Notes: generated from the letters alone by a model not told the origin. Positions 5,042 through 58,441 are shown, counted from the stretch's first letter. The stretch is 64,000 nucleotides of DNA from Mycobacteriales bacterium (GCA_046595815.1 JBKJSN010000088.1:10264-74263); one strand, 5' to 3'. Translations and numbers: made by a program.

Positions 5042-7345
5042 ATGCTCTTGCGATCAGAAGATCTGCTCACCCGGCTCGCCGCCGGCCCCGAGCGCGCTGC
5101 CCGGATCACCCACGTCGAGCACGTGCCCGCCAGGGATGGGCGCACTGTGCCCTGGCCCGACTGGGTGTCCGACGACCTTCGCGCCGCCCTTGCCCAGTCG
5201 GGGGTGAGTCGGCCGTGGCAGCACCAGGCGCAGGCGGCAGAGCTCGCCCGCGCGGGCAGACACGTCGTCCTGGCGACCGGCACGGCATCGGGCAAGTCCC
5301 TCGGCTACCTGCTGCCGGTGCTCACGGCGCTGCTCGAAGACGAGCGAGCCACGGCGCTGTACCTGTCCCCGACGAAGGCCCTGGCCACCGACCAGCTCAG
5401 GGCGGTCAACGCCCTCGCCCTTGCGGGCGTGCGCGCCGCCACCTACGACGGCGACACCCCCCACGAAGAGCGCGACTGGGTCCGCCGCTTCGCGGGTCTG
5501 GTCCTGACCAACCCCGATATGCTCCACCGCTCGGTCCTCCCGCGGCACGACGACTTCTCCCGGCTGCTCCGGGGACTCCAATTCGTCGTCGTCGATGAGT
5601 GCCACACCTACCGCGGGGTCTTCGGCTCCCACGTCGCGCAGGTACTGCGCCGGCTCCGCCGGGTGTGCGCCCGATACGGCGCCGACCCCGTGTTCCTGCT
5701 CGCCTCGGCCACGGTCCGTGACCCGGAGGTGTCTGCCTCACGACTGCTCGGGCTGCCCGTCGTACCCGTCACTGACGATGCCTCTGCCCGCGGCTCGACG
5801 GAGTTCGCGCTCTGGGAACCTCCCCTTCTGGAAGGCCGTGGGGGTGAGCACGGAGCGCCGGTACGTCGGACCGCCACCGCCGAAGCCGCCGAACTCCTCG
5901 CCGACCTCGTCGTGGAAGGCGCACGGTCGCTGGTGTTCGTCCGGTCCAGACGCGGGGCCGAGGCGGTGGCGCTGGGGGCCAAGCGGGCGCTGGACGAGTC
6001 GGTCCCGGAGCTGGCCGGCCGGGTCGCGGCGTACCGGGGGGGCTACCTGCCACAGGAGCGGCGCGAGCTCGAGCGACGGCTCCAGTCGGGGGAGCTGCTC
6101 GGCGTCGCCGCGACCAACGCGCTGGAGCTCGGGGTGGACGTGGCCGGACTCGACGCGGTGCTGCTGGCCGGTTGGCCCGGGACGGTGTCCTCGGTCTGGC
6201 AGCAGGCCGGGCGTGCAGGACGGGCCGGCCAGAGCGCCCTCGCCGTGCTGATCGCCCGCGACGACCCGCTGGACACCTACCTTGCACATCACCCGGAGGC
6301 GGTGTTCGGTCGACCCTTCGAGGCCACGGTGCTGGACCCCTCCAACCCGTACGTGCTCGGTCCGCACCTGTGCTGCGCTGCTGCCGAGCTGCCGCTGACC
6401 GAGCAGGACCTCCCGCTCTTCGGGGAGGGAGCAGCAGACGTGCTCACCGATCTGGTCGCGCGCGGGCTGCTCCGACGCCGGCCACGCGGCTGGTTCTGGA
6501 CCTCCCGGGATCGTCCCGACGCCGACCTGCGTGGCGCCGGTGGCCCGCCGATCCGGCTGGTCGAGTCCGGCACCGGCCGGCTCCTCGGCACCGTCGACCA
6601 CAGCTCGGCGCACAGCCAAGTGCACACCGGGGCCGTCTACCTCCACCAGGGCGAGAGCTACCTCGTGGACGCCCTGGACCTCGACGACGGGGTCGCTCTC
6701 GTCAGCCCCGACGACCCCGACTACAGCACCTCCGCCCGCGACGTCACCGAGCTGCGGGTGGTCGCCGAGCTGCAGTCCTCGTCGTACGACGGGCTCCGGC
6801 TGTGCTTCGGAACGGTCGACGTGACGCACCAGGTGGTGTCGTTCCTGCGCAAGCGCCTGGGGTCCGGCGAGGTCCTCGGCGAGGAGCCCCTGGACCTGCC
6901 GCCGCGCGAGCTGCGCACCCGCGCCGTCTGGTACACCGTGACGCCCGAGCTGCTCGCCCACGCCGGTCTCGCACCAGGGGACGTGCCCGGCGCTGCTCAC
7001 GCCGCCGAGCACGCCGCGATCGGCCTGCTGCCGCTGTTCGCGACCTGCGACCGATGGGACATCGGCGGGGTTTCCACCGCGTTGCACGCCGACACCGGCC
7101 TCGCCACCGTCTACGTGTACGACGGCCATCCCGGTGGCGCGGGCTTCGCCGAGCGCGCGTACGGCGAGGCTGCGCGCTGGCTCACCGCCACCCGAGACGC
7201 GATCGCGTCCTGTGAGTGTCTGGCCGGCTGCCCTTCGTGCGTGCAGTCCCCCAAGTGCGGCAACGGCAACGAGCCGTTGGACAAGGCCGGCGCTGTCCGC
7301 CTTCTCGACGTGGTGCTGGCCAGCGGGCTCGGTGGGGCTGGCTAG
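5042..7345 (+). CDS. DEAD/DEAH-box helicase with C-terminal MrfA-type zinc-binding domain (helicase/secretion-neighbourhood helicase)
   Basis: Walker A TGTASGKS, DECH box (VVDECH), helicase C motifs, C-terminal CECLAGCPSCVQSPKCGNGNEPLDK (DUF1998-like). Start moved to ATG 5042 (MLLRSEDLL) because track start 4928 overlaps bldG. Confidence 0.9.
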   Translation: MLLRSEDLLTRLAAGPERAARITHVEHVPARDGRTVPWPDWVSDDLRAALAQSGVSRPWQHQAQAAELARAGRHVVLATGTASGKSLGYLLPVLTALLEDERATALYLSPTKALATDQLRAVNALALAGVRAATYDGDTPHEERDWVRRFAGLVLTNPDMLHRSVLPRHDDFSRLLRGLQFVVVDECHTYRGVFGSHVAQVLRRLRRVCARYGADPVFLLASATVRDPEVSASRLLGLPVVPVTDDASARGSTEFALWEPPLLEGRGGEHGAPVRRTATAEAAELLADLVVEGARSLVFVRSRRGAEAVALGAKRALDESVPELAGRVAAYRGGYLPQERRELERRLQSGELLGVAATNALELGVDVAGLDAVLLAGWPGTVSSVWQQAGRAGRAGQSALAVLIARDDPLDTYLAHHPEAVFGRPFEATVLDPSNPYVLGPHLCCAAAELPLTEQDLPLFGEGAADVLTDLVARGLLRRRPRGWFWTSRDRPDADLRGAGGPPIRLVESGTGRLLGTVDHSSAHSQVHTGAVYLHQGESYLVDALDLDDGVALVSPDDPDYSTSARDVTELRVVAELQSSSYDGLRLCFGTVDVTHQVVSFLRKRLGSGEVLGEEPLDLPPRELRTRAVWYTVTPELLAHAGLAPGDVPGAAHAAEHAAIGLLPLFATCDRWDIGGVSTALHADTGLATVYVYDGHPGGAGFAERAYGEAARWLTATRDAIASCECLAGCPSCVQSPKCGNGNEPLDKAGAVRLLDVVLASGLGGAG

Positions 7346-47627: not shown

Positions 47628-47716
47628 GGAGGATTCGCCTAGTTGGCCTATGGCGCACGCTTGGAAAGCGTGTTGGGGGCAACCCCTCGCGAGTTCGAAT
47701 CTCGCATCCTCCGCCA
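47628..47716 (+). tRNA. tRNA-Ser (anticodon GGA), CCA encoded
   Basis: Acceptor GGAGGAT/ATCCTCC, anticodon stem CACGC/GCGTG with loop TTGGAAA, long variable arm (GGGG/CCCC), T arm GCGAG-TTCGAAT-CTCGC, then G plus CCA. Confidence 0.9.
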
Positions 47717-47756
47717 CGACTCTCCCGGGTCTTCGGATCCTGACGGGGTGCTGGGC

Positions 47757-48360
47757 TCATCGGACGACGATGGAGCCCAGCACTCGCCAGTTCGGTTTGC
47801 CGGCATAGAGCAGGGCACGGACTCGGTAGTTGCGGAAGTTGCGGAAGCCGAACCCGATCCGCTTGATGCGCTTGATCAGGTTGTTGAGCGCCTCGGTGGG
47901 GCCGTTGCCGACGCGGGCGATGTGGAAGTTGCAGATCTTGTCGAACCACTTCTCGAGTGTGCCGCCGAGTTTGCGGAGCTCGAAGGGCATGGTGGGTCGC
48001 TTGCAGTGCTCGATCAGCTCGCGGAGCATCGCTCGGGCGGGGTCGATGTCGGTGCAGCGGTAGAACTCGCGCAGCCGTTCTTTGACCCGGTAGGCGATCG
48101 CGACCTCACCGTTGGGGTCGCCCTGGGCCAGCAGTGAAGCCAGTCGTTGCTGGGCTGCTTCGGTGAGCCGTTCCTCACCGGTCAGCAATACGCGACGCAC
48201 CCGGAACAGTGGGTCGCGCGCGACGTCCGCGGTGGCCCTTGTCCTCGCGTTGCACCCGGCGCCGGACCTCATCCAGCGCCCGGTTGGCGAGCTGGATGCA
48301 AGGGAAGGCGTCAACGACCTGCTTGGCCTTGGGCAGCGCTGCGGGGCTCGCGCGCAGGTC
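47757..48360 (-). pseudogene. ISL3-family transposase remnant (5'-truncated, frameshifted)
   Basis: C-terminal ISL3-like sequence (RVRRVLLTGEERL ... NGPTEALNNLIKRIKRIGFGFRNFRNYRVR). A different frame upstream reads KQVVDAFPCIQLANRALDEVRRRVQRE..GHRGR. Frameshift near 48214-48222, in-frame TAG at about 48361. No N-terminal half. Confidence 0.8.
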
Positions 48361-48449
48361 CTAGGCGTCGCTATTCGGTCGGCGGCGTCGGCGTTCTCGA
48401 GTGTTGGGGAAGGGAACGTTTGGTGCGTGCAGAGCCGACGTTCTGGACA

Positions 48450-49238
48450 TCACCGACCGACCCGCTTCAGGGGCGGAACCTGAGCAGCGCCGAAGATGGC
48501 GGGCCGGGACACCTGCACCGCGACCACGAAGCACACCGCCCACAGCACGGCGACCGCAGCCCAGGTCCGCCCGATGCTGCCCGCCAGGTCCGGCTCAAAC
48601 CACGAAACGACTGCCAGCCAGACAGTCGCGGTCCCGACACACCAGGTCGGCACACGCCACCCCTGGGGGTGCCCCGCGGCCAGAGTTGCTCCCAGCAGCA
48701 ACGCGATGGGGAGCGCCGCCTGGATGGGCCAGTGGTCAAGGCCCCAGGTGTCATCTGCGACGAGATTGGTGCCGGTCGCTCGGGCTGAGTTCCACGAATA
48801 GGCGAAGGCCGGGGCGGCGGCCAGGACCACGAGCGCGGCCGGTAGCAGAGACGGCCGCCAGTACGACGGCCACGCTCGGAGCCCACCCCCCGTCGCCGCG
48901 AGAACGGCCGTGGTCACTGCGAGAGCGGCCGCGACGACGAGGTGCCCAGCCGACCCGCTCACTGCCGAAGCCGTCGCGACCGCCACGGCCACTGCGACCA
49001 CCAGGCCGAGCGCGGCTGGCGTGGCAGCCGCCGGCCTCACCACGAGTGCCAGCAGCGGCGCAGCCACCAGGAACAGAAAGAGCAGCCCCCAGCCGGTGGA
49101 CAGCAGCAGGGTCCGGTGGAAGTCCGGACCCTGCGCGAAAGCTAAGAGGTCGGTCAGGCCGAAGAAGAAAAATCCCCACAAGACGGCGAGGGCGGCGGCC
49201 AGAGTGCGGTGCAGGCGGGCCACAGACAGGCACCTCAT
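48450..49238 (-). CDS. integral membrane protein, function unknown
   Basis: 262 aa with about 8 hydrophobic helices. No motif recognised. Confidence 0.6.
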   Translation of the reverse strand: MRCLSVARLHRTLAAALAVLWGFFFFGLTDLLAFAQGPDFHRTLLLSTGWGLLFLFLVAAPLLALVVRPAAATPAALGLVVAVAVAVATASAVSGSAGHLVVAAALAVTTAVLAATGGGLRAWPSYWRPSLLPAALVVLAAAPAFAYSWNSARATGTNLVADDTWGLDHWPIQAALPIALLLGATLAAGHPQGWRVPTWCVGTATVWLAVVSWFEPDLAGSIGRTWAAVAVLWAVCFVVAVQVSRPAIFGAAQVPPLKRVGR

Positions 49239-49681
49239 TGCGGGGCGTTAGGACGTCGGTGACGGGCCCGGCGGCGCCCGCTTGTGAACTGAACTGCGGC
49301 CAGCGTCGTGACTAGAACGAGGTCCCCCGTGCTTCTGTGTGACCCAAGACGACGTCCAAAGCGGCGACCCCCAGGGGCCGCAAGATCACCGGCATCACTG
49401 GGTCATCCAGCGCGTTCAGTCGCGTCACCAGGGTCATGGGCGCCAGTATGTCCCATCCTGCGCGTACTCGCGGCGATCGTGACCGGCATCCCTGCCGTTC
49501 TCATCAGTCCAGGCGATCTTGCTCCCACGCACTTACCCGCCCCGATCCCAGCCCGCTGCCGTACGGGCCGTTGTTCGTCGCTGTGCCGGACCTGGGTGAA
49601 GGCGCTTCCTGCCGGCGAGCTACCCGCCTTCGTGGCGGATGTCATCAGTGCGGCCCGCCAGCGGGAAGCTCCCGGTGCCGG

Positions 49682-49732
49682 CGAAAGCGTCTTGGGGGCA
49701 ACCCCTCGCGAGTTCGAATCTCGCATCCTCCG
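49682..49732 (+). repeat. duplicate of the 3' half of tRNA-Ser(GGA) (att-type direct repeat; partner 47664-47714)
   Basis: GAAAGCGTcTTGGGGGCAACCCCTCGCGAGTTCGAATCTCGCATCCTCCGC is identical to 47664-47714 except for one base (50/51). It starts in the anticodon loop and ends in the acceptor stem. Confidence 0.9.
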
Positions 49733-49737
49733 CGCAA

Positions 49738-49775: not shown

Positions 49776-49834
49776 GTCGTGCGTCGTGTCATGGCTTGTA
49801 CGCCGTCCCGCTCGGGGCTGGCCGTGACATCGAA

Positions 49835-49870
49835 AACCCCTGAACCCGCTCAGCTGTGGGTTCAGGGGTT
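49835..49870 (-). terminator. hairpin terminator candidate (minus strand)
   Basis: 13-bp perfect arms AACCCCTGAACCC / GGGTTCAGGGGTT with a 10-nt loop. On the minus strand the stem runs into TTTTCG. It lies about 310 nt downstream of the 644-aa gene. Confidence 0.5.
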
Positions 49871-50181
49871 CTCGATCTCCGAAGAGATCACATTGGCGGG
49901 GTGGCGACGAAACTCCAAACCCGCAGGTCACAGTCATGGTCAACGAGATTCGCCCAAGGCGGTGCACGCGTTTTGCCCCGGACCTTGCACACTCCACAAA
50001 CCGACTCTCGAGGCGCGGAGCCTGAGTCGTACGGTGCGGTTCTGGGTGCGGTTCTGGGTGCGAGCGGGTGCCGTTGCCTGCCGGGTGAAGCCAGGGGCTG
50101 TCTTCGCAGCGAGCTGGTCGAAAGCGAGGTTGCGCTACTGGCAGATCCTGACCTGCTCAAAGCTTGGCGCCGCAGGTCTTC

Positions 50182-52116
50182 CTATCGGGTCTGACCGGTG
50201 CTCTCGGGCGCAGGCTGAGCTGCAGTCGGCTGCTGACGCAATCGGTGCGCCAGCAGGCTCTCCCGTCCTGCATCTGTGAGCCGGAAGGTCGAGGTGGGGC
50301 TCAGGGGGTTGTCGGTTGTACGGAGGATGAACCCCTTCTTCTCCGCCTCAGAAATCCAGCGGGTGCGGCTCTTGGTGGAGGCGAGGCTGAGCGCCTCAGC
50401 GATGCCCTTGGGTGAGAGCTCTCCGCCGCTACTGGCGTCGATGGCTGCGAGGAGCTCAGGCACCCGGCTCTCCCTGCTCCGGCCGTCCCTCACGGGCTTC
50501 TGCTGCTCATGCGCTGGCGCCTCGATAGCGCCAGCTCCCCGATCAGCTCCCCCGGTGCCCGCGGGCTCGTTGCTCAGCCTCCACGACGAGCTGTGCTTGC
50601 TACTTAGACGGTGAAGAATGCCGGCATCTTCGAGTGCCCGCAGTTCCGCTGCGGCGTCCACAAGCGCGCACGGTGCCAGGCTTCGGGCGGCCAAGTGCGT
50701 CCCGAAGGAAACGCCTGCCAGACCTGACTCGTTCACCTCCTCGCGCAACTGCATCAGACGGAGCAGAACGCTGACTAGGCGCAATCGGGCCGGGGAGCCC
50801 TCGACCTTCTTCTTCTCGAGCACCTGCCGGGCTGGCTCAAGGTCCAGCGTTCCCCTCAGCATGATGACCTGGAATGCGTTGGGCTTGTCTACGAACAGGA
50901 TTGGCATGCAGCCTGCAACGTGACACGCCTCGTCGGCGGCGGCAATGCCTGAGGTTTGATGCTCAACGATGCGAGCCCCGCTTGGGGAACGCAGCTCCTC
51001 AGCGATCCGCACCAGGCTGACGTTGCGTACGCCGGACATGTGGGTCATCCCAAGCTTCTCCAGGTCTGCATCCACGTGCAGTCCCCCTGGGCTGGTCACC
51101 ACAACCGAGGAGTCTGCTACCTCCACGAGCACGCTCGTGTCTCGTTGCGAAGGGGCGAACCCCCGGTGCACGAGGGCGTTGGACAAGACTTCTCGGAGTG
51201 TCTCGCGGGGAATGTCGAGCTCATCGAAGAGCTGCCCGCGCCGAACGACCTGCATGATGCCAAGTTCTTGATTCAGCGCCTCGAGTGTTTTGTCGAGCAG
51301 CTCCCCGGCGGTGCCGTCGATGTTGTGCGAAGCGAAGCGGGTGTCAGGAGGATCCGTGGCCTTGGGGTGCCTGCGGTAGCCGATGCGGCCGCTGTCGCTC
51401 CGGGTGTGGGGGTTCTCGCCTAGCGTCACTAGTCCGGCGTAGGTGAGCGTGCCGTCATCTCGCAGAACCCCCCACTGACGAAGCAAGTGCTCGTTGCCGT
51501 GCTCGGCCGACTTGGGGTTGGCGTTCCGTAGCGCCTGACAGAAGGCGTCGGCGGCAACGGTGTTCAGCGTGCTTCCCTCAGGGGCAGCCGCCCGGCTGAG
51601 GTCCTCACGCTTGCGGTTTGCCAACATTCCCGCGACCTCGGAAGGTGTCAGTCGCTGGTCGCCATCGCCCACTCGGATGAACGACCCCTTCTCGGGCCCA
51701 TCGCCCGCTCGGTGGCAGGGACGCTCATCTCTGGGTACCGCAGGAATGTCTGCGATCAGGACGGTGCCGTCGGGGTGGCTGACCAAGCTGATGGTGGCCC
51801 TCAGCGGTGGCTGCATCGATGCGCAGACTGCCTGAAACTCCGAGAGCATCTTTTGGGGGTTGTCCACGCCCGTCACGTCGAACGTGCCCGAGTTCTCGAA
51901 CACACCCAGCAAGAAGATGCCGCCCTCGCCGTTTGCAAAGGCACTGAGGGTTTCGTGGGTGGTCTCTGGAAGCGCTCGTTGCGCCCGCTTGGCTTCGATG
52001 AACTGATGGTCCGTTTTGACATCCCGAAGCTCGGCCAAAAGAGCATCCAAGGCATCGACATCCATCGGTGAGGCAGCTCCTGTCACGCGCAGCACGGTCC
52101 GCTCAGGAGTCCTCAA
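50182..52116 (-). CDS. AlbA_2 (Schlafen-like) plus HATPase_c_4 plus C-terminal winged-helix protein (putative DNA-binding ATPase/regulator)
   Basis: AlbA_2 signature (FIEAKRA ... LSAFANGEGGIFLLGV). HATPase_c_4 signature (REVLSNALVHRGF ... VVVTSPGGL). C-terminal wHTH-like segment (LSPKGIAEALSLASTKSRTRWISEAEKKGFILR). Track start 52116 is TTG; ATG 52065 (MDVDALDALL) is an alternative. Confidence 0.8.
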   Translation of the reverse strand: MRTPERTVLRVTGAASPMDVDALDALLAELRDVKTDHQFIEAKRAQRALPETTHETLSAFANGEGGIFLLGVFENSGTFDVTGVDNPQKMLSEFQAVCASMQPPLRATISLVSHPDGTVLIADIPAVPRDERPCHRAGDGPEKGSFIRVGDGDQRLTPSEVAGMLANRKREDLSRAAAPEGSTLNTVAADAFCQALRNANPKSAEHGNEHLLRQWGVLRDDGTLTYAGLVTLGENPHTRSDSGRIGYRRHPKATDPPDTRFASHNIDGTAGELLDKTLEALNQELGIMQVVRRGQLFDELDIPRETLREVLSNALVHRGFAPSQRDTSVLVEVADSSVVVTSPGGLHVDADLEKLGMTHMSGVRNVSLVRIAEELRSPSGARIVEHQTSGIAAADEACHVAGCMPILFVDKPNAFQVIMLRGTLDLEPARQVLEKKKVEGSPARLRLVSVLLRLMQLREEVNESGLAGVSFGTHLAARSLAPCALVDAAAELRALEDAGILHRLSSKHSSSWRLSNEPAGTGGADRGAGAIEAPAHEQQKPVRDGRSRESRVPELLAAIDASSGGELSPKGIAEALSLASTKSRTRWISEAEKKGFILRTTDNPLSPTSTFRLTDAGRESLLAHRLRQQPTAAQPAPESTGQTR

Positions 52117-52122
52117 CGCTCG

Positions 52123-52310
52123 AACCCTTTACCCAAACCTTACACCCAACTCCTGACTTCCCGCCCACTTGGGTAAAGGGTTCCCTGGCGCTCGGCCTGC
52201 GATACACGCTCAGAACTACCCCATGTGAGCAAGTTGGGTAAAGGGTTTCGGGCAAGTTGGGTAAAGGGTTGGTGCCTTGGGTAAAGGGTTGGTGCCTTGG
52301 GTAAAGGGTC
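52123..52310. repeat. iteron array: 14-bp motif TTGGGTAAAGGGTT, five direct copies plus one or two inverted copies
   Basis: Direct copies at 52169-52182, 52234-52247, 52257-52270, 52277-52290 and 52297-52310 (last base C). Inverted copy AACCCTTTACCCAA at 52123-52136. Degenerate inverted copy (11/14) at 52136-52149. The last three form 20-bp tandem units TTGGGTAAAGGGTTGGTGCC. Confidence 0.9.
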
Positions 52311-52514
52311 TCTGACGAGGGGGTGTGCCAGGTAACTGTTCAAGTAGAAGCGCTACCGACCCCGGACGTCCACTTCTGCCGGTGCCTGAGAGGGCCTGGT
52401 GGCGGCGCTACCGCGTTGCAGCCAGCAGTCAGGTTCTCATGAGCACGCCTAACAAGCCGGAAAGATGGGTCCAACCGCGCGCATTGTCGTGCTTGCTCGC
52501 AGGAGCGGCGTACG

Positions 52515-52748
52515 GTGCACACAATGGACCCTCTTGACGGTTTGCCGTCCGAGTCGCGCGCCGAGGTAGTGGCCGCTGTACAAGCCGCTTGGGACGTGAG
52601 CCCGGCCGCGGCTGAGGAGATTCTCCGCGCCGCTGAGCCGCTGTGGAACGTGCTCGAGGAACACGGCGGAGTGGATACCTGGGGCGGTATGGAGTTCGTC
52701 AATGTCTTCCCGCAGGCACTTGTACTCATCCGCAAAGCGTGCAACTGA
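52515..52748 (+). CDS. small acidic hypothetical protein (77 aa)
   Basis: GTG start 9 nt after AGGAG. About 70% G/C at third codon positions, within a locally lower-GC region. No motif recognised. Confidence 0.55.
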   Translation: MHTMDPLDGLPSESRAEVVAAVQAAWDVSPAAAEEILRAAEPLWNVLEEHGGVDTWGGMEFVNVFPQALVLIRKACN

Positions 52749-54547: not shown

Positions 54548-56401
54548 TTGCAACCGCGGATCGAGACCGGACCTGTGTTCGTTGTGACCACAGAGGGTTC
54601 GACGGAGACGACGGTGCAGCGGCTTGCCCGCTACACCCCGTATCTGCTGACCGCGGCGCAGTGGGCGCTCGCACAGGCTCCGGTGACGAACGCCGTCCTC
54701 GCTGCTGCTCCTGCCGATGCTGCTGACGCGATGGGGTTGGCCTCTCGGCTGTGCCGGCTACTTGTCGAACACCCTGGCTGGGACGGCCTGAGCGTTCCGG
54801 ACCTGGCCTTGTTGGTGACCGACCCGGGGATCAGCGCGCACATAGCGCGACTGGCGGCTTCCGGGACTTCCAGCCAGGGTCAGGGCAAGCATCTGTGCGA
54901 TCTTCGCCGGCTCAAGCACGCTCTCGCCGGGACCGTTGCCCCTGTGCGGGCACCCGTTCGCAAGCCAGTGGCTCCGTCGGCCGCCACCCGGCCACTGATG
55001 TCCTGGCTGGCAGCGGGCGAGCCGCTGCTCACGGCGGTGGCCGCGTATGAGAAGTCAACCGGCCGCAGCCTGAGCAAGAAGGTGATGAACCGGGCTGCTG
55101 AGGGAGCGCCGGCGTCGAGTGCGGCGGCGCCAGATCCGGGCACCGTGCTCTCGCTGAGCTCCGTCGGGGCTCCTGCGTGGGAAGTGGTGAGTCCACGAAC
55201 ATGGGCACGGTCATCCTCTGAGAGCACCTCCGGACCACTCAGGTCCGCCGCCCGGGCAGCGAGCGCGACGTCGAGCGCGACCTCGCGCACCTCGGGACCT
55301 GCTACTTCGGTGAAGCCGTCACGAGCTGCGGCGCTGCGTGCGGCGAAGGCAGCTGCCAGCGCGCGTTCAGCCCCGACTGTGACTGCCCTGCCCGACGTGA
55401 GCCTGCTGCCTGCAAAGGTGCAAGAAGCGATCGCCGAGTACCGCCCAGCAGCTCTCAGCGCCGAGCGCTGGGAGATCCTTGGGCCCCTGTGCCGCCGCCT
55501 CATCGCCAGCTACGCACCAGTCACTGCCGGGGTTGCCCGTTCGAGCGCGACCTCTATTGCCGCGTTCGTCGCGTGGATCCAGACGCGGCCGGGGCGGGCC
55601 GACGTTGGTGGCTCCGTTGCGGTTGAGGAGCTTCAGACCGCGGGCCTTCTCGATGTGTACCTGACGGAGTTGGCTGCTAGCGGGACGCCAGATCCGTCGC
55701 TGGCGACGTACCGGTCTGTGCTTCGGCGAACACTGAAGGCGCTGGACCCCAGCCCTCCCGCGGCGATCGCCTACCAGCCGATCGCTGGGCCGTACAGCGC
55801 CGCAGAGTGCGCCGCGTACGTGCGGCTGGCCCGCAACCAGCCCACCTCCCCTCGCCGTCGGGAACTCTCGACGATCGTCGGGCTCGGTCTCGGTGCCGGG
55901 CTGGACGGCAAAGACCTCCGCGCGGTGTGCCCGACCGATTTCAGTGACGCGACGCTCCCTGACGGAACGCTCGTGCTCCTTGTGCAGGTCCGCGGCGGCC
56001 GCCCCCGGACGGTGCCCGTCCGCGCGCTTTACGCCGATCTGGTCCGGGAAGCGCTGGCCCTGCACGCCAGCGATCGTCGGGGTTCCAACACGCCGCTGTT
56101 GGGCGTGAAGCCGACGCGGAAGAGCATCACGAGCCCAGCTATCCGCGACGCCGTCACCGCTACCGATGACAGCGTTGACATCGCGGTGAACCGGCTCCGC
56201 GCGACGTGGCTGGTGGCGTGTCTGGCCGCAGGCATCCCCCTCGGGCCGCTGCTGCACGCTGCTGGGCTGCGCTCAGCCAGGACCCTTACGGACCTGCTCG
56301 CGTACTGCCCCGCGCCGAACCCAGGCGACGTCAACCGACTCCTCGCGACCCTTCCCGCCGGTCCTTCTGGAACGCCTCCTGCGCCGGCAGGTGCGACATG
56401 A
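54548..56401 (+). CDS. tyrosine-recombinase-like protein with long N-terminal extension; catalytic residues appear partly substituted
   Basis: The C-terminal half has a core-binding-like segment (SIAAFVAWIQ ... ATYRSVLRRTLKAL) and an integrase-fold-like segment (GLGAGLDGKDLRAV, RGGRPRTVPV, NRLRATWLVACLAAGIPL, AGLRSARTLTDLLAY). TTG start is uncertain. The middle is low-complexity Ser/Ala/Arg. Confidence 0.55.
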   Translation: MQPRIETGPVFVVTTEGSTETTVQRLARYTPYLLTAAQWALAQAPVTNAVLAAAPADAADAMGLASRLCRLLVEHPGWDGLSVPDLALLVTDPGISAHIARLAASGTSSQGQGKHLCDLRRLKHALAGTVAPVRAPVRKPVAPSAATRPLMSWLAAGEPLLTAVAAYEKSTGRSLSKKVMNRAAEGAPASSAAAPDPGTVLSLSSVGAPAWEVVSPRTWARSSSESTSGPLRSAARAASATSSATSRTSGPATSVKPSRAAALRAAKAAASARSAPTVTALPDVSLLPAKVQEAIAEYRPAALSAERWEILGPLCRRLIASYAPVTAGVARSSATSIAAFVAWIQTRPGRADVGGSVAVEELQTAGLLDVYLTELAASGTPDPSLATYRSVLRRTLKALDPSPPAAIAYQPIAGPYSAAECAAYVRLARNQPTSPRRRELSTIVGLGLGAGLDGKDLRAVCPTDFSDATLPDGTLVLLVQVRGGRPRTVPVRALYADLVREALALHASDRRGSNTPLLGVKPTRKSITSPAIRDAVTATDDSVDIAVNRLRATWLVACLAAGIPLGPLLHAAGLRSARTLTDLLAYCPAPNPGDVNRLLATLPAGPSGTPPAPAGAT

Positions 56402-58104
56402 TTCCTCGGACCGAGCTCGACCGTGCGGTCGCGCTCGTGCGGCGCTCCGGCGTGCATAAGGACCTCGAAGCAAGGCTGCGTCCAGACGGCGCGGGCGGGC
56501 GGCCCCGGCAACTGCCCGTTGACGTGTTTCTCGCCGGCGTGATCTTGGCCGCGGGCAGCCGCAAGAACCTGGCCTTGACGAACGTGCATGCGCTCCTGAC
56601 CGGCGACATCGCCCGGTCGGCCCAGATCCAGTACGGGATCCGTTGGACGGACAAGGCCGGCGCCAGCCGCTGCCTGACGCTCCGGCAGGTCCGGTACTTG
56701 CTGGAAGCTCTCGAAGGAAAACTTGCCGCGACCCCAGGGCGGGCACCTGACCTGGACGACGTTGAGCGCGCCGAGCGCACCGACGCGCTCCAGTCCGTGC
56801 TGGACAAGCTCCTCGCCGCGACCATGCCGGTCCACCTACCGCCCGCAGACCGCTTCGCGCTCGACGCGACCTCGATGGAGTCCTGGGGCAAAGGCAAGCG
56901 CCGCACGGCCGTCGCGGTGCCCCAGGTGGAGCCGGAGGGCACTGGCGCGCACCCGCCGGCGGGGGTCGCTGAAGGTGACCTGCTGGCCATTGCACTCGAG
57001 GCTGGTGCCTCGTTCGACCCTGATGCTGACTGGGGCTACCGGACCCGCACGTACGACAACAAGACCAAGATGTGCTTTGGGTACGACGTGTTCGCGATCA
57101 CTGCGATGCCCAAGCCTGGTGGCACCGGAGTGCTCGACCGGCCGGTTCTGACCGAACGGCTCGTGGTCGCGCCGGCGAGTGCCGATGTCGTCGCTCCCGC
57201 GCTCGGGATGTTCGACCGGCTCACCGACGACGGCCGGACGGTCGTGGAGGTCGCCGCCGACCGCGCCTGGTCCTACAAGCTTCCCGATCGGTGGGCGGAT
57301 GAGCTTCGCGCACGGGAGATAGAAGCCGTGCTGGACCTGCACCCTAACGATCAGGGCGTCCGGGACTTCGAGGGAATCCGGATGGTCGCCGGGACGCCGC
57401 ACTGCCCTTCGATGCCCGATGAGCTGATCAACATCGTCCGGCCCGCGAACCTCTCCGCTGGCCGCGACCGGCCCCGTGCCAGTGCTGTACAGAAGGCCGA
57501 GCGAGCAAAGCGCAACTCGGAGCTCGAGGAGTTCGCGGCCAAGATCGCCGAGCGTGAAGCGTGGGCTTTCCGCCGGGTCGCCGGACCCGACGAGACCGGC
57601 AAGGAGCGCTGGGAGTGCCCCGCGCAGGCCGGCAAGCGCAGCTGCGGCAACTGCCCGTTCAGCAAGGACTTTCCGGTCGGCACCCCGACGGTCGAGAACC
57701 CGCCTGAGCTCACGACCGCGCCCAAGTGCTGCACCCAACGGACCGTGACGATCCCCGGGTCGGTCACGCCCAAGATCCGTCAGCGCCTGTACTGGGGCAG
57801 CCCCGAGTGGATCGCGTCGTTCAACCGACGGACCTACATCGAGGGCGTGTTCGGCAACATGAAGTCCCCCAAGACCGAGAACGTCCGCCGCGGCTGGACG
57901 TTCGTCGTCGGGATCGTCAAGACCAGCCTCATGGTCGGGTGTGTTGCTGCTGCCGCGAACCTTCGCACGCTCCGGGCATGGGCGGCACGAACCGGAGACC
58001 ACAGGGACCCCCTCACCGTCATCGACCCCGTCAGCGCCGGGTTCGAGGAGCTCGAACCCGACTGCGGCGCCACCGGTATCCACGGGCCACCGCTCGCCGC
58101 CTGA
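56398..58104 (+). CDS. DDE transposase-like protein (IS4/IS5-superfamily type, YREK-like signature) with Cys-rich insertion
   Basis: ATG 56398 overlaps the upstream stop (ATGA). DUF772/InsH-N-like N-terminus (GRPRQLPVDVFLAGVILAAGS). Candidate D (FALDATSMESW), D (EVAADRAWSY), E in F-x2-R-x3-E-x6-K (FNRRTYIEGVFGNMK). Cys cluster WECPAQAGKRSCGNCPFS. Confidence 0.65.
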   Translation: MIPRTELDRAVALVRRSGVHKDLEARLRPDGAGGRPRQLPVDVFLAGVILAAGSRKNLALTNVHALLTGDIARSAQIQYGIRWTDKAGASRCLTLRQVRYLLEALEGKLAATPGRAPDLDDVERAERTDALQSVLDKLLAATMPVHLPPADRFALDATSMESWGKGKRRTAVAVPQVEPEGTGAHPPAGVAEGDLLAIALEAGASFDPDADWGYRTRTYDNKTKMCFGYDVFAITAMPKPGGTGVLDRPVLTERLVVAPASADVVAPALGMFDRLTDDGRTVVEVAADRAWSYKLPDRWADELRAREIEAVLDLHPNDQGVRDFEGIRMVAGTPHCPSMPDELINIVRPANLSAGRDRPRASAVQKAERAKRNSELEEFAAKIAEREAWAFRRVAGPDETGKERWECPAQAGKRSCGNCPFSKDFPVGTPTVENPPELTTAPKCCTQRTVTIPGSVTPKIRQRLYWGSPEWIASFNRRTYIEGVFGNMKSPKTENVRRGWTFVVGIVKTSLMVGCVAAAANLRTLRAWAARTGDHRDPLTVIDPVSAGFEELEPDCGATGIHGPPLAA

Positions 58105-58351: not shown

Positions 58352-58441
58352 TGGCGGTGGCGGTGGGATTTGAACCCACGGAGGAGTTGCCCCCTCACAC
58401 GCTTTCGAGGCGTGCTCCTTCGGCCGCTCGGACACGCCACC
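58352..58441 (-). tRNA. tRNA-Ser (anticodon CGA), CCA encoded
   Basis: The minus strand reads GGTGGCGTGTCCGAGCGGCCGAAGGAGCACGCCTCGAAAGCGTGTGAGGGGGCAACTCCTCCGTGGGTTCAAATCCCACCGCCACCGCCA. Anticodon loop CTCGAAA, long variable arm, T loop TTCAAAT. Confidence 0.9.

Follow-up and report, generated by a model that had tools for sequence, protein, structure and literature searches.

The locus lies within a 64-kb stretch of DNA from a Mycobacteriales genome, which was analysed as a whole and is called here the window. A gene of the Schlafen-GHKL ("Schlatpase")-wHTH type, preceded by an array of short repeats, is located in an island between two tRNA-Ser genes, with GC and GC3 values below those of the flanking genes (Table 1). 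The other island proteins are a 513-aa HEAT-repeat protein, a 617-aa protein without a Pfam match, and a 77-aa protein. No matches to Rep, ParA/ParM, or relaxase families were found in five island proteins (Pfam, NCBIfam, and PADLOC searches).

Divergent to the Schlafen gene is a 77-aa ORF that is a genuine, conserved gene: its homologues are 59%-80% identical and mostly 74-75 aa long, and its codon positions have GC values typical of coding sequence. It was rejected as a conserved partner, since the loci of its homologues contain neither a Schlafen gene nor the repeated motif. One of these homologues (L123) is located just upstream of an ECF-sigma-like gene, and the neighbours of another (L124) are unannotated.

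The 3' end of the tRNA-Ser(GGA) gene is repeated directly 2 kb on, forming an att-like pair that encloses a fragment of an ISL3 transposase gene and a 262-aa ORF. This region (47628-49733) resembles what is left of an integrated element, with the Schlafen island just beyond it. Downstream of the Schlafen gene, about 300 nt from its stop codon and roughly 100 nt past the tRNA-fragment repeat, lies an inverted repeat, perhaps a terminator or a hairpin associated with att. Beside the tRNA-Ser(CGA) gene, the 617-aa ORF has a C-terminus resembling, by eye, the catalytic region of a tyrosine recombinase in degenerate form. It shares about 200 nt with a 632-aa ORF, for which there was only a weak, sub-threshold DDE/IS1182-like C-terminal match; this pair may represent an unusual mobile-element module.

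Table 1. Features of the locus (nucleotide positions in the window) and domains of the Schlafen-GHKL-wHTH protein (residues, 644-aa numbering)
Feature	Position	Strand	Description
tRNA-Ser(GGA)	47628-47716		3' end repeated downstream
ISL3 transposase fragment	47757-48314	-	Between the att-like pair
262-aa ORF	48450-49238	-	Between the att-like pair; no Pfam match; hydrophobic by eye
Direct repeat of tRNA 3' end	49683-49733		51 nt, 98% identical
Inverted repeat	49826-49879		22 nt, 91% complementary, 10-nt loop
Schlafen-GHKL-wHTH gene	50182-52065	-	627 aa from ATG 52065; ORF open to TTG 52116 (50182-52116, 644 aa)
Site O1	52123-52136	-	Exact TTGGGTAAAGGGTT; same direction as the Schlafen gene; -71 to -58 from ATG 52065; promoter-proximal copy
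Site O2	52136-52149	-	TTGGGTGTAAGGTT, 11/14; tandem to O1, 13 nt start to start
Site O3	52169-52182	+	Exact TTGGGTAAAGGGTT; directed away from the gene; -117 to -104
Site O4	52234-52247	+	Exact TTGGGTAAAGGGTT; -182 to -169; first of the distal array
Sites O5, O6, O7	52257-52310	+	Starts at 52257, 52277, and 52297 in 20-bp tandem units; O7 is 13/14, ending GGGTC
77-aa ORF	52515-52748	+	Probable ATG 52524; no known domain
617-aa and 632-aa ORFs	54548-58104		617-aa ORF without Pfam/NCBIfam match
tRNA-Ser(CGA)	58352-58441	-	
Slfn/AlbA_2 domain	about residues 20-166		Pfam PF04326 (SLFN_AlbA_2), E 1.4e-11, residues 38-156
GHKL domain	about residues 270-420		Pfam PF13749 (HATPase_c_4), E 2.1e-10, residues 327-419
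wHTH1	residues 442-514		AF2 model
Disordered linker	residues 523-547		25 residues; AF2 model
wHTH2	residues 552-628		AF2 model; basic helix KSRTRWISEAEKK

The Schlafen-GHKL-wHTH protein

The Schlafen protein probably starts at ATG 52065, not at TTG 52116, because an identical NCBI protein (P0001) is 627 aa long, homologues all align from that methionine, and the N-terminus of the TTG-started model is disordered (pLDDT <50 for residues 1-13). The AF2 model of the 644-aa protein, built with 40 homologues, has a pLDDT of 89.2, with values mostly >90 in the wHTH domains. In the predicted Schlafen catalytic motif D36-x4-E41-x-K43 (644-aa numbering), E41 and K43 are invariant in the 40 homologues, and D36 is conserved in at least 90% of them; the first acidic residue is Asp, not Glu, which makes the motif a conservative variant of E-x4-(E/D)-x-K. 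Residues E309, N313, A314, and S342-P343-G344 are also invariant across the 40 homologues, and we take them to be the ATP-binding (Bergerat fold) motifs of GHKL ATPases.

A PDB search matched the Slfn domain to 2kyy (3e-08) and the C-terminus to the Fic C-terminal wHTH 4rgl, and Foldseek matched the protein to 3lmm (8e-23), the structure of the uncharacterised DIP2311. Considered by parts, Foldseek related the Schlafen part to human SLFN11 (7zel) and SLFN13 (5yd0), the GHKL part to the catalytic domains of the histidine kinases HK853 and CusS and of PDK, and the wHTH part to operator complexes of the MarR-family regulators MftR and PecS and, weakly, to the pNOB8 centromere-binding protein AspA. 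Thus, the adjacent protein has the prokaryotic Schlafen-GHKL-HTH architecture: SLFN_AlbA_2, the catalytic-type motif, GHKL, and the C-terminal HTH are all present. PADLOC returned only weak partial matches to models of Argonaute-associated (Aga) defence proteins and assigned none of the known defence systems.

C-terminal tails were present in all 40 homologues. They diverge faster than the core, which is only suggestive in the comparison of tail and motif identity, since semi-global alignments of short tails are unreliable. The wHTH2 helix reads SRtRWISEAE in the GGGTAAAGGG clade and SRnRWIxRAR in the GTAAGG clade, a difference consistent with a change in DNA specificity.

The repeat array and its counterparts at related loci

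The repeated word TTGGGTAAAGGGTT has seven matches with up to three mismatches on both strands of the 64-kb window (five exact, one at 13/14, and one at 11/14). All of them are inside 52123-52310, and none was found elsewhere in the window, in agreement with the preliminary description. The mean chance expectation is 0.61 matches per window, and 0 of 100 dinucleotide shuffles reached seven. All seven sites fall 58-245 nt from ATG 52065.

The five direct copies reported initially are at the positions given, but only four are perfect, O7 being the exception. The last three indeed share a 20-bp spacing, but the units described as exact have an identical spacer in only two cases: units 1 and 2 (52257-52296) are identical throughout, and unit 3 is equally spaced with a different spacer. 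TRF detected a period of 20 bp with 2.7 copies and a 100% match over 52257-52309, and the direct-repeat spacings in the window are 20, 20, and 23 bp. The inverted copy O1 is exact, as had been stated, but it lies 6 nt, not 7 nt, from TTG 52116, and with the likely start at ATG 52065 it is upstream by 58 nt and more. The copy next to it, O2, previously considered degenerate, does match at 11/14, but its sequence in fact corresponds to the motif of related lineages, its core GTGTAAGGTT being the consensus repeat among relatives with about 50% identity.

O2 contains a TANNNT (-10-like) hexamer, TAAGGT, and its counterpart in the 86%-identical relative L032, TGTACGTTT, has TACGTT, also fitting TANNNT. 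It is a guess that this hexamer acts as the -10 element and that O1 would cover the transcription start. Scans for sigma-70 consensus promoters and terminators gave nothing usable in the high-GC window or in five lower-GC relatives. O3, O2, and O1 make up a conserved "< ... > >" proximal module and were also seen among the inverted repeats. As for base composition, the values of 31/60 and 33/60 reported for the array were correct, and the lowest-GC 300-nt stretch of the window is 51994-52293 (56.3% GC), but at the scale of 60-188 nt a site near position 1600 is slightly lower.

In the relative with 86% identity (L032), AACCCTTTATCCAA at -178, AACCCTTTACTCAA at -114, and TTGGGTAAAGGGTT at -63 align with -182, -117, and -68 in the window, the flanking upstream sequence being otherwise about 70% identical. 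The counterpart of O1 is identical, and that of O2 occupies the same place. The position of O3 is kept both in L032 and in the 83%-identical relative L033, and O4 is aligned to AACCCTTTATCCAA in the former and AACCCTTTACCCAA in the latter. The L033 gene is 5'-truncated, encoding 480 aa without the Slfn domain, and is probably decaying; in its upstream region (L033 1-450) the proximal copies are lost, whereas two distal sites persist. O5-O7 are without counterparts in the upstream alignments of L032 and L033 and are thus specific to the window. They look like a recent slippage or 20-bp tandem duplication extending the distal array and could be functionally neutral.

The relatives with about 50% identity (Xylanimonas cellulosilytica CP001821 [L118], L122, L120, and L034) all have G(T/C)GTAAGG(T/C)T repeats of the GTGTAAGGTT type. 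Their module consists of one copy directed away from the gene, a spacer, and two tandem copies directed towards the gene, and the proximal module stops 30-55 nt before the ATG. They also carry a second module or a distal "<<<" array of three copies 21-22 bp apart. The window follows the layout of these relatives, with O3 followed by O2 and O1 and with the distal array in addition.

Among 124 loci, the 14-mer with up to two mismatches was found only upstream of L032 and L033, apart from one isolated chance match. When 185,579 species genomes were scanned for two TGGGTAAAGGG words within 5-35 nt, 31 loci were obtained, none of them beside a Schlafen gene. Therefore, the exact word is specific to the lineage of the window. 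Two loci from the scan were inspected and rejected, namely, a REP-like palindromic array between convergent genes in Myxococcales (L001) and a 41-bp tandem repeat between sugar-modifying genes in a Solirubrobacterales MAG (L025). In the latter (7010-7230), five to six 41-bp units with TTGGGTAAAGGGGG are located between deacetylase-like and glycosyltransferase genes, unrelated to Schlafen genes.

Repeated 9-mers were searched for de novo in the 250 nt upstream of 41 homologue loci (25%-86% identity, GC 36%-76%) and compared with Markov shuffles. They reached p<=0.01 in 13 of 41 loci and p<=0.05 in 20 (about 0.4 and 2 expected); about half of the loci were below significance with this crude statistic, many of them having three copies only. 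Similar upstream repeats are present in homologues across the range of 25%-86% identity. In the 16 loci with clear motifs, sites occur at a density of 21.1 per kb within 300 nt upstream of the gene, against 0.17 per kb in the remainder of the same loci. Same-strand neighbours are spaced by 11-12 bp in 14 of 56 cases and by 20-21 bp in 26 of 56, which corresponds to one or two helical turns, and in view of the family-wide peak at 20-21 bp the 20-bp phasing in the window is the family norm. The orientation "<<<..>>", with distal copies directed away from the gene and proximal ones towards it, was found in most of 17 loci.

The motif itself follows protein identity: it is the same at 83%-86%, has a related GTAAGG core at about 50%, and is replaced by unrelated words at 25%-43%, while the layout is kept. 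The unrelated words are lineage-specific and include CTCATCCAA (10 copies), AGACATAAA (9), AGTTGCAAA and TACTCTGCA (7 each), ACTGCGAAG (6), and AACTTCCCA (5).

A module of three AACTTCCCA copies, a spacer, and two copies of TGGGAAGTT is present twice at the locus of a 29%-identical homologue of 481 aa (L049, 2920-2990 and 4474-4540). One module is upstream of the gene and the other right after its stop codon, so that direct copies flank the gene on both sides; the second is not followed by any obvious gene. Two distant, plasmid-borne homologues have upstream gaps of only 6-95 nt, leaving no space for an array of their own: one is located inside a type I R-M operon, hsdM-hsdS-[Schlafen protein]-hsdR, of Pseudoalteromonas pMEGA (L125) and the other between glycosyltransferase genes of a Parabacteroides plasmid (L126).

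A candidate operator and the alternatives

Neighbouring genes differ in every homologue locus and include PKS, metabolic (amino-acid catabolism) operons, a ParA-like gene, and TA/AbiE genes; the ParA-like gene is upstream only in L118, and the neighbour in L032 is a cold-shock-like ORF, read from sequence. As far as the compared sequences allow one to judge, the Schlafen-GHKL-wHTH gene is the only one constant beside the repeats. Since the repeats travel with this gene alone and the word changes with its lineage, its own product is the candidate reader. The repeats are likely to be a cooperative multi-site autoregulatory operator recognized by the Schlafen protein's own wHTH. The comparative evidence supports the initial proposal of phased sites for cooperative binding by a predicted DNA-binding protein, probably through the C-terminal wHTH of the adjacent protein, and the comparable repeats upstream of homologues favour its option of an autoregulatory operator. 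Helical phasing, copies on both strands, the lack of an Rfam match, and an unremarkable RNA fold point to recognition at the level of DNA.

We infer binding by the protein's own wHTH, oligomeric and cooperative, with negative autoregulation. Oligomeric binding is suggested by a Schlafen-Argonaute relative, in which this supradomain mediates the formation of tetramers driven by ATP, and negative autoregulation by the likely toxicity of Schlafen nucleases and by the growth arrest caused by TrlG, which has a separate regulator gene. The sign of regulation, repression, is a guess, and the N-terminal AlbA_2 domain could read the repeats instead of the wHTH. Under this operator model, an oligomer would form through the GHKL/Schlafen core, and its C-terminal wHTH heads would dock onto the phased copies along a single face of the helix. 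The proximal module O3-O2-O1, 58-117 nt before the start codon, would overlap or abut the candidate promoter, so its occupancy would set, and most likely repress, transcription of the potentially toxic effector. The distal direct array O4-O7 may contribute cooperative or looping contacts.

A further-reaching reading, which we regard as speculative and rather improbable, is that Schlafen-GHKL-wHTH proteins are single-chain DNA-tethered abortive-infection switches. ATP-dependent oligomers on their own array would repress the gene and hold the Schlafen RNase inactive until an invader cue frees them, derepressing the gene and starting tRNA cleavage; a phage protein, a change in ATP, or competing foreign DNA could be such a cue. 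If so, the lineage-specific arrays would be a co-evolving part of a defence system, not a plain operator. This would account for the up to 10 sites in some relatives and for the bracketing modules of L049.

That the repeats are operator sites for another regulator, encoded by the host or the island, is unlikely. The island does encode further uncharacterised proteins (the HEAT-repeat, 617-aa, and 77-aa proteins), but the repeats accompany the Schlafen gene even though all neighbours differ, and the homologues of the 77-aa gene lack the motif. Moreover, the word shifts with the Schlafen protein lineage, and a conserved host factor would need no new word per lineage.

It is still less probable that the array is mostly a fortuitous, microsatellite-like duplication without a function. 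Two 20-bp units are 100% identical including the spacer, and the absence of the three distal-most copies from the 86%- and 83%-identical relatives indicates that this part arose by recent tandem duplication. On the other hand, O1, O3, and O4 are at conserved positions in L032 and L033 (in L033, the two distal ones only) within a region otherwise about 70% identical, and equivalent arrays with helical phasing and conserved orientation are found in relatives down to 25% identity. For O1-O4 this explanation is largely refuted by their conservation.

We consider it very unlikely that the repeats act as RNA, whether as a structured leader, as a small RNA, or by being targeted by the Schlafen RNase/AlbA_2 domain. 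In relatives that have been characterised, RNA binding and cleavage are activities of the AlbA_2/Schlafen domain (PMC13056530), and some homologues are labelled "RNA-binding domain-containing protein" in RefSeq. Contrary to this, the array region had no Rfam match at E<=1, its RNA fold does not significantly exceed that of shuffled sequences in stability (z = -1.8, with 11 of 200 shuffles doing equally well), copies occur on both strands, and the spacings of 11-12 and 20-21 bp fit the helical repeat of double-stranded DNA.

Finally, an origin of the plasmid or ICE type with the repeats as iterons, or a ParR-type centromere, belonging to an integrated island, is highly improbable: repeats two helical turns apart with an inverted repeat beside a tandem-winged-helix gene do resemble iteron plasmids, the low-GC island lies between two tRNA-Ser genes with an att-like repeat, and the pNOB8 centromere-binding protein is among the weak Foldseek wHTH matches, but no Rep, ParA/ParM, or relaxase match was found in the adjacent genes, no DnaA box TT(A/G)TCCACA within one mismatch and no AT-rich unwinding stretch were found in 51900-52600 (minimum 30-nt GC 43%), and homologues with such arrays are inside ordinary chromosomal operons and a PKS cluster. 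Phased direct repeats with a period of 17-22 bp, a criterion for iterons, are present but common to operators, so they do not discriminate. Of the options initially listed, the plasmid-type origin is thus not supported, given the lack of a Rep gene, DnaA box, and AT-rich element and the unrelated chromosomal contexts of homologues, and neither is the ParR/centromere-like site, given the lack of a conserved partition gene.

Phased autoregulatory operators are an already known kind of element. Novelty seems to lie in the connection of such arrays with the Schlafen-GHKL-wHTH family, in a multi-site layout on which the whole family converges, and in the prediction that the DNA ligand of each member is readable upstream of its own gene; no description of a link between repeat arrays and Schlafen genes was found in open-access papers and preprints. 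With each gene paired to a predicted DNA ligand readable from sequence, the function of the HTH becomes testable. The arrays suggest tight self-control of potentially toxic nucleases, and many protein/operator pairs with lineage-specific words might serve as orthogonal genetic parts.

Comparison with known systems

Schlafen-GHKL proteins with an HTH tail correspond to the "HisKinase-HTH" pSlfn class (PMC13056530) and the "Schlatpase" supradomain (bioRxiv 10.64898/2026.05.29.728809). The GHKL domain was reported in 60,692 of 103,533 Schlafen-domain proteins, with >90% of their tails containing an HTH, and it drives ATP-dependent tetramerisation in a Schlafen-Argonaute relative (bioRxiv 10.64898/2026.05.29.728809). 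Schlafen-GHKL-HTH is described as the most abundant prokaryotic Schlafen class, without a reported function, and the passages of these two sources dealing with the HTH, promoters, or transcription mention neither a DNA target for the HTH nor upstream repeats (PMC13056530; bioRxiv 10.64898/2026.05.29.728809). HisKinase fusions in E. coli gave no defence against a phage panel, and the native-promoter constructs of that study included only 100-150 nt of upstream sequence (PMC13056530). Constructs of this length would cut off the distal arrays, which may explain failed heterologous assays. The window protein shares with this class the SLFN_AlbA_2 domain with an acidic-x4-acidic-x-K motif, the GHKL ATPase, and the C-terminal HTH; as differences, it has a pair of wHTH domains and a disordered linker 25 residues long.

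Iteron plasmids (pPS10 RepA, F RepE, R6K pi) contain direct iterons and an inverted-repeat operator at the rep promoter, and a tandem-winged-helix binder autoregulates its gene. The window shares with them direct repeats phased at roughly two turns of the helix, an inverted pair by the gene of the candidate binder, and tandem winged helices. Unlike these plasmids, it has no Rep similarity, DnaA boxes, or unwinding element, the N-terminal portion of its protein is that of a nuclease-ATPase and not of an initiator, and the genes are chromosomal and found in varied contexts. The ParR-parC (R1), omega repressor heptad (pSM19035), and AspA (pNOB8) systems have many short repeats, 7, 10-11, or 20-21 bp apart, in mixed orientation at the promoter of the binder, with cooperative and autoregulatory binding. 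Their binders are small RHH or wHTH proteins working with a partition NTPase. Short phased repeats in mixed orientation are common to these systems and the window, but no conserved partition partner is present at the Schlafen loci.

Among autoregulated toxin-antitoxin and abortive-infection modules, the wHTH of AbiEi binds inverted repeats in its own promoter. TrlG of Photorhabdus, a Schlafen-GHKL protein lacking the HTH, causes growth arrest and is encoded in an operon with a separate regulator gene (TrlR-TrlG, PMC7554251). Control of a growth-arresting effector by a wHTH, predicted for the window, would be alike in these systems. In contrast to both, the regulator and effector in the window would be one polypeptide, and the operator of the Schlafen family has up to 7-10 phased sites, not one or two inverted repeats.
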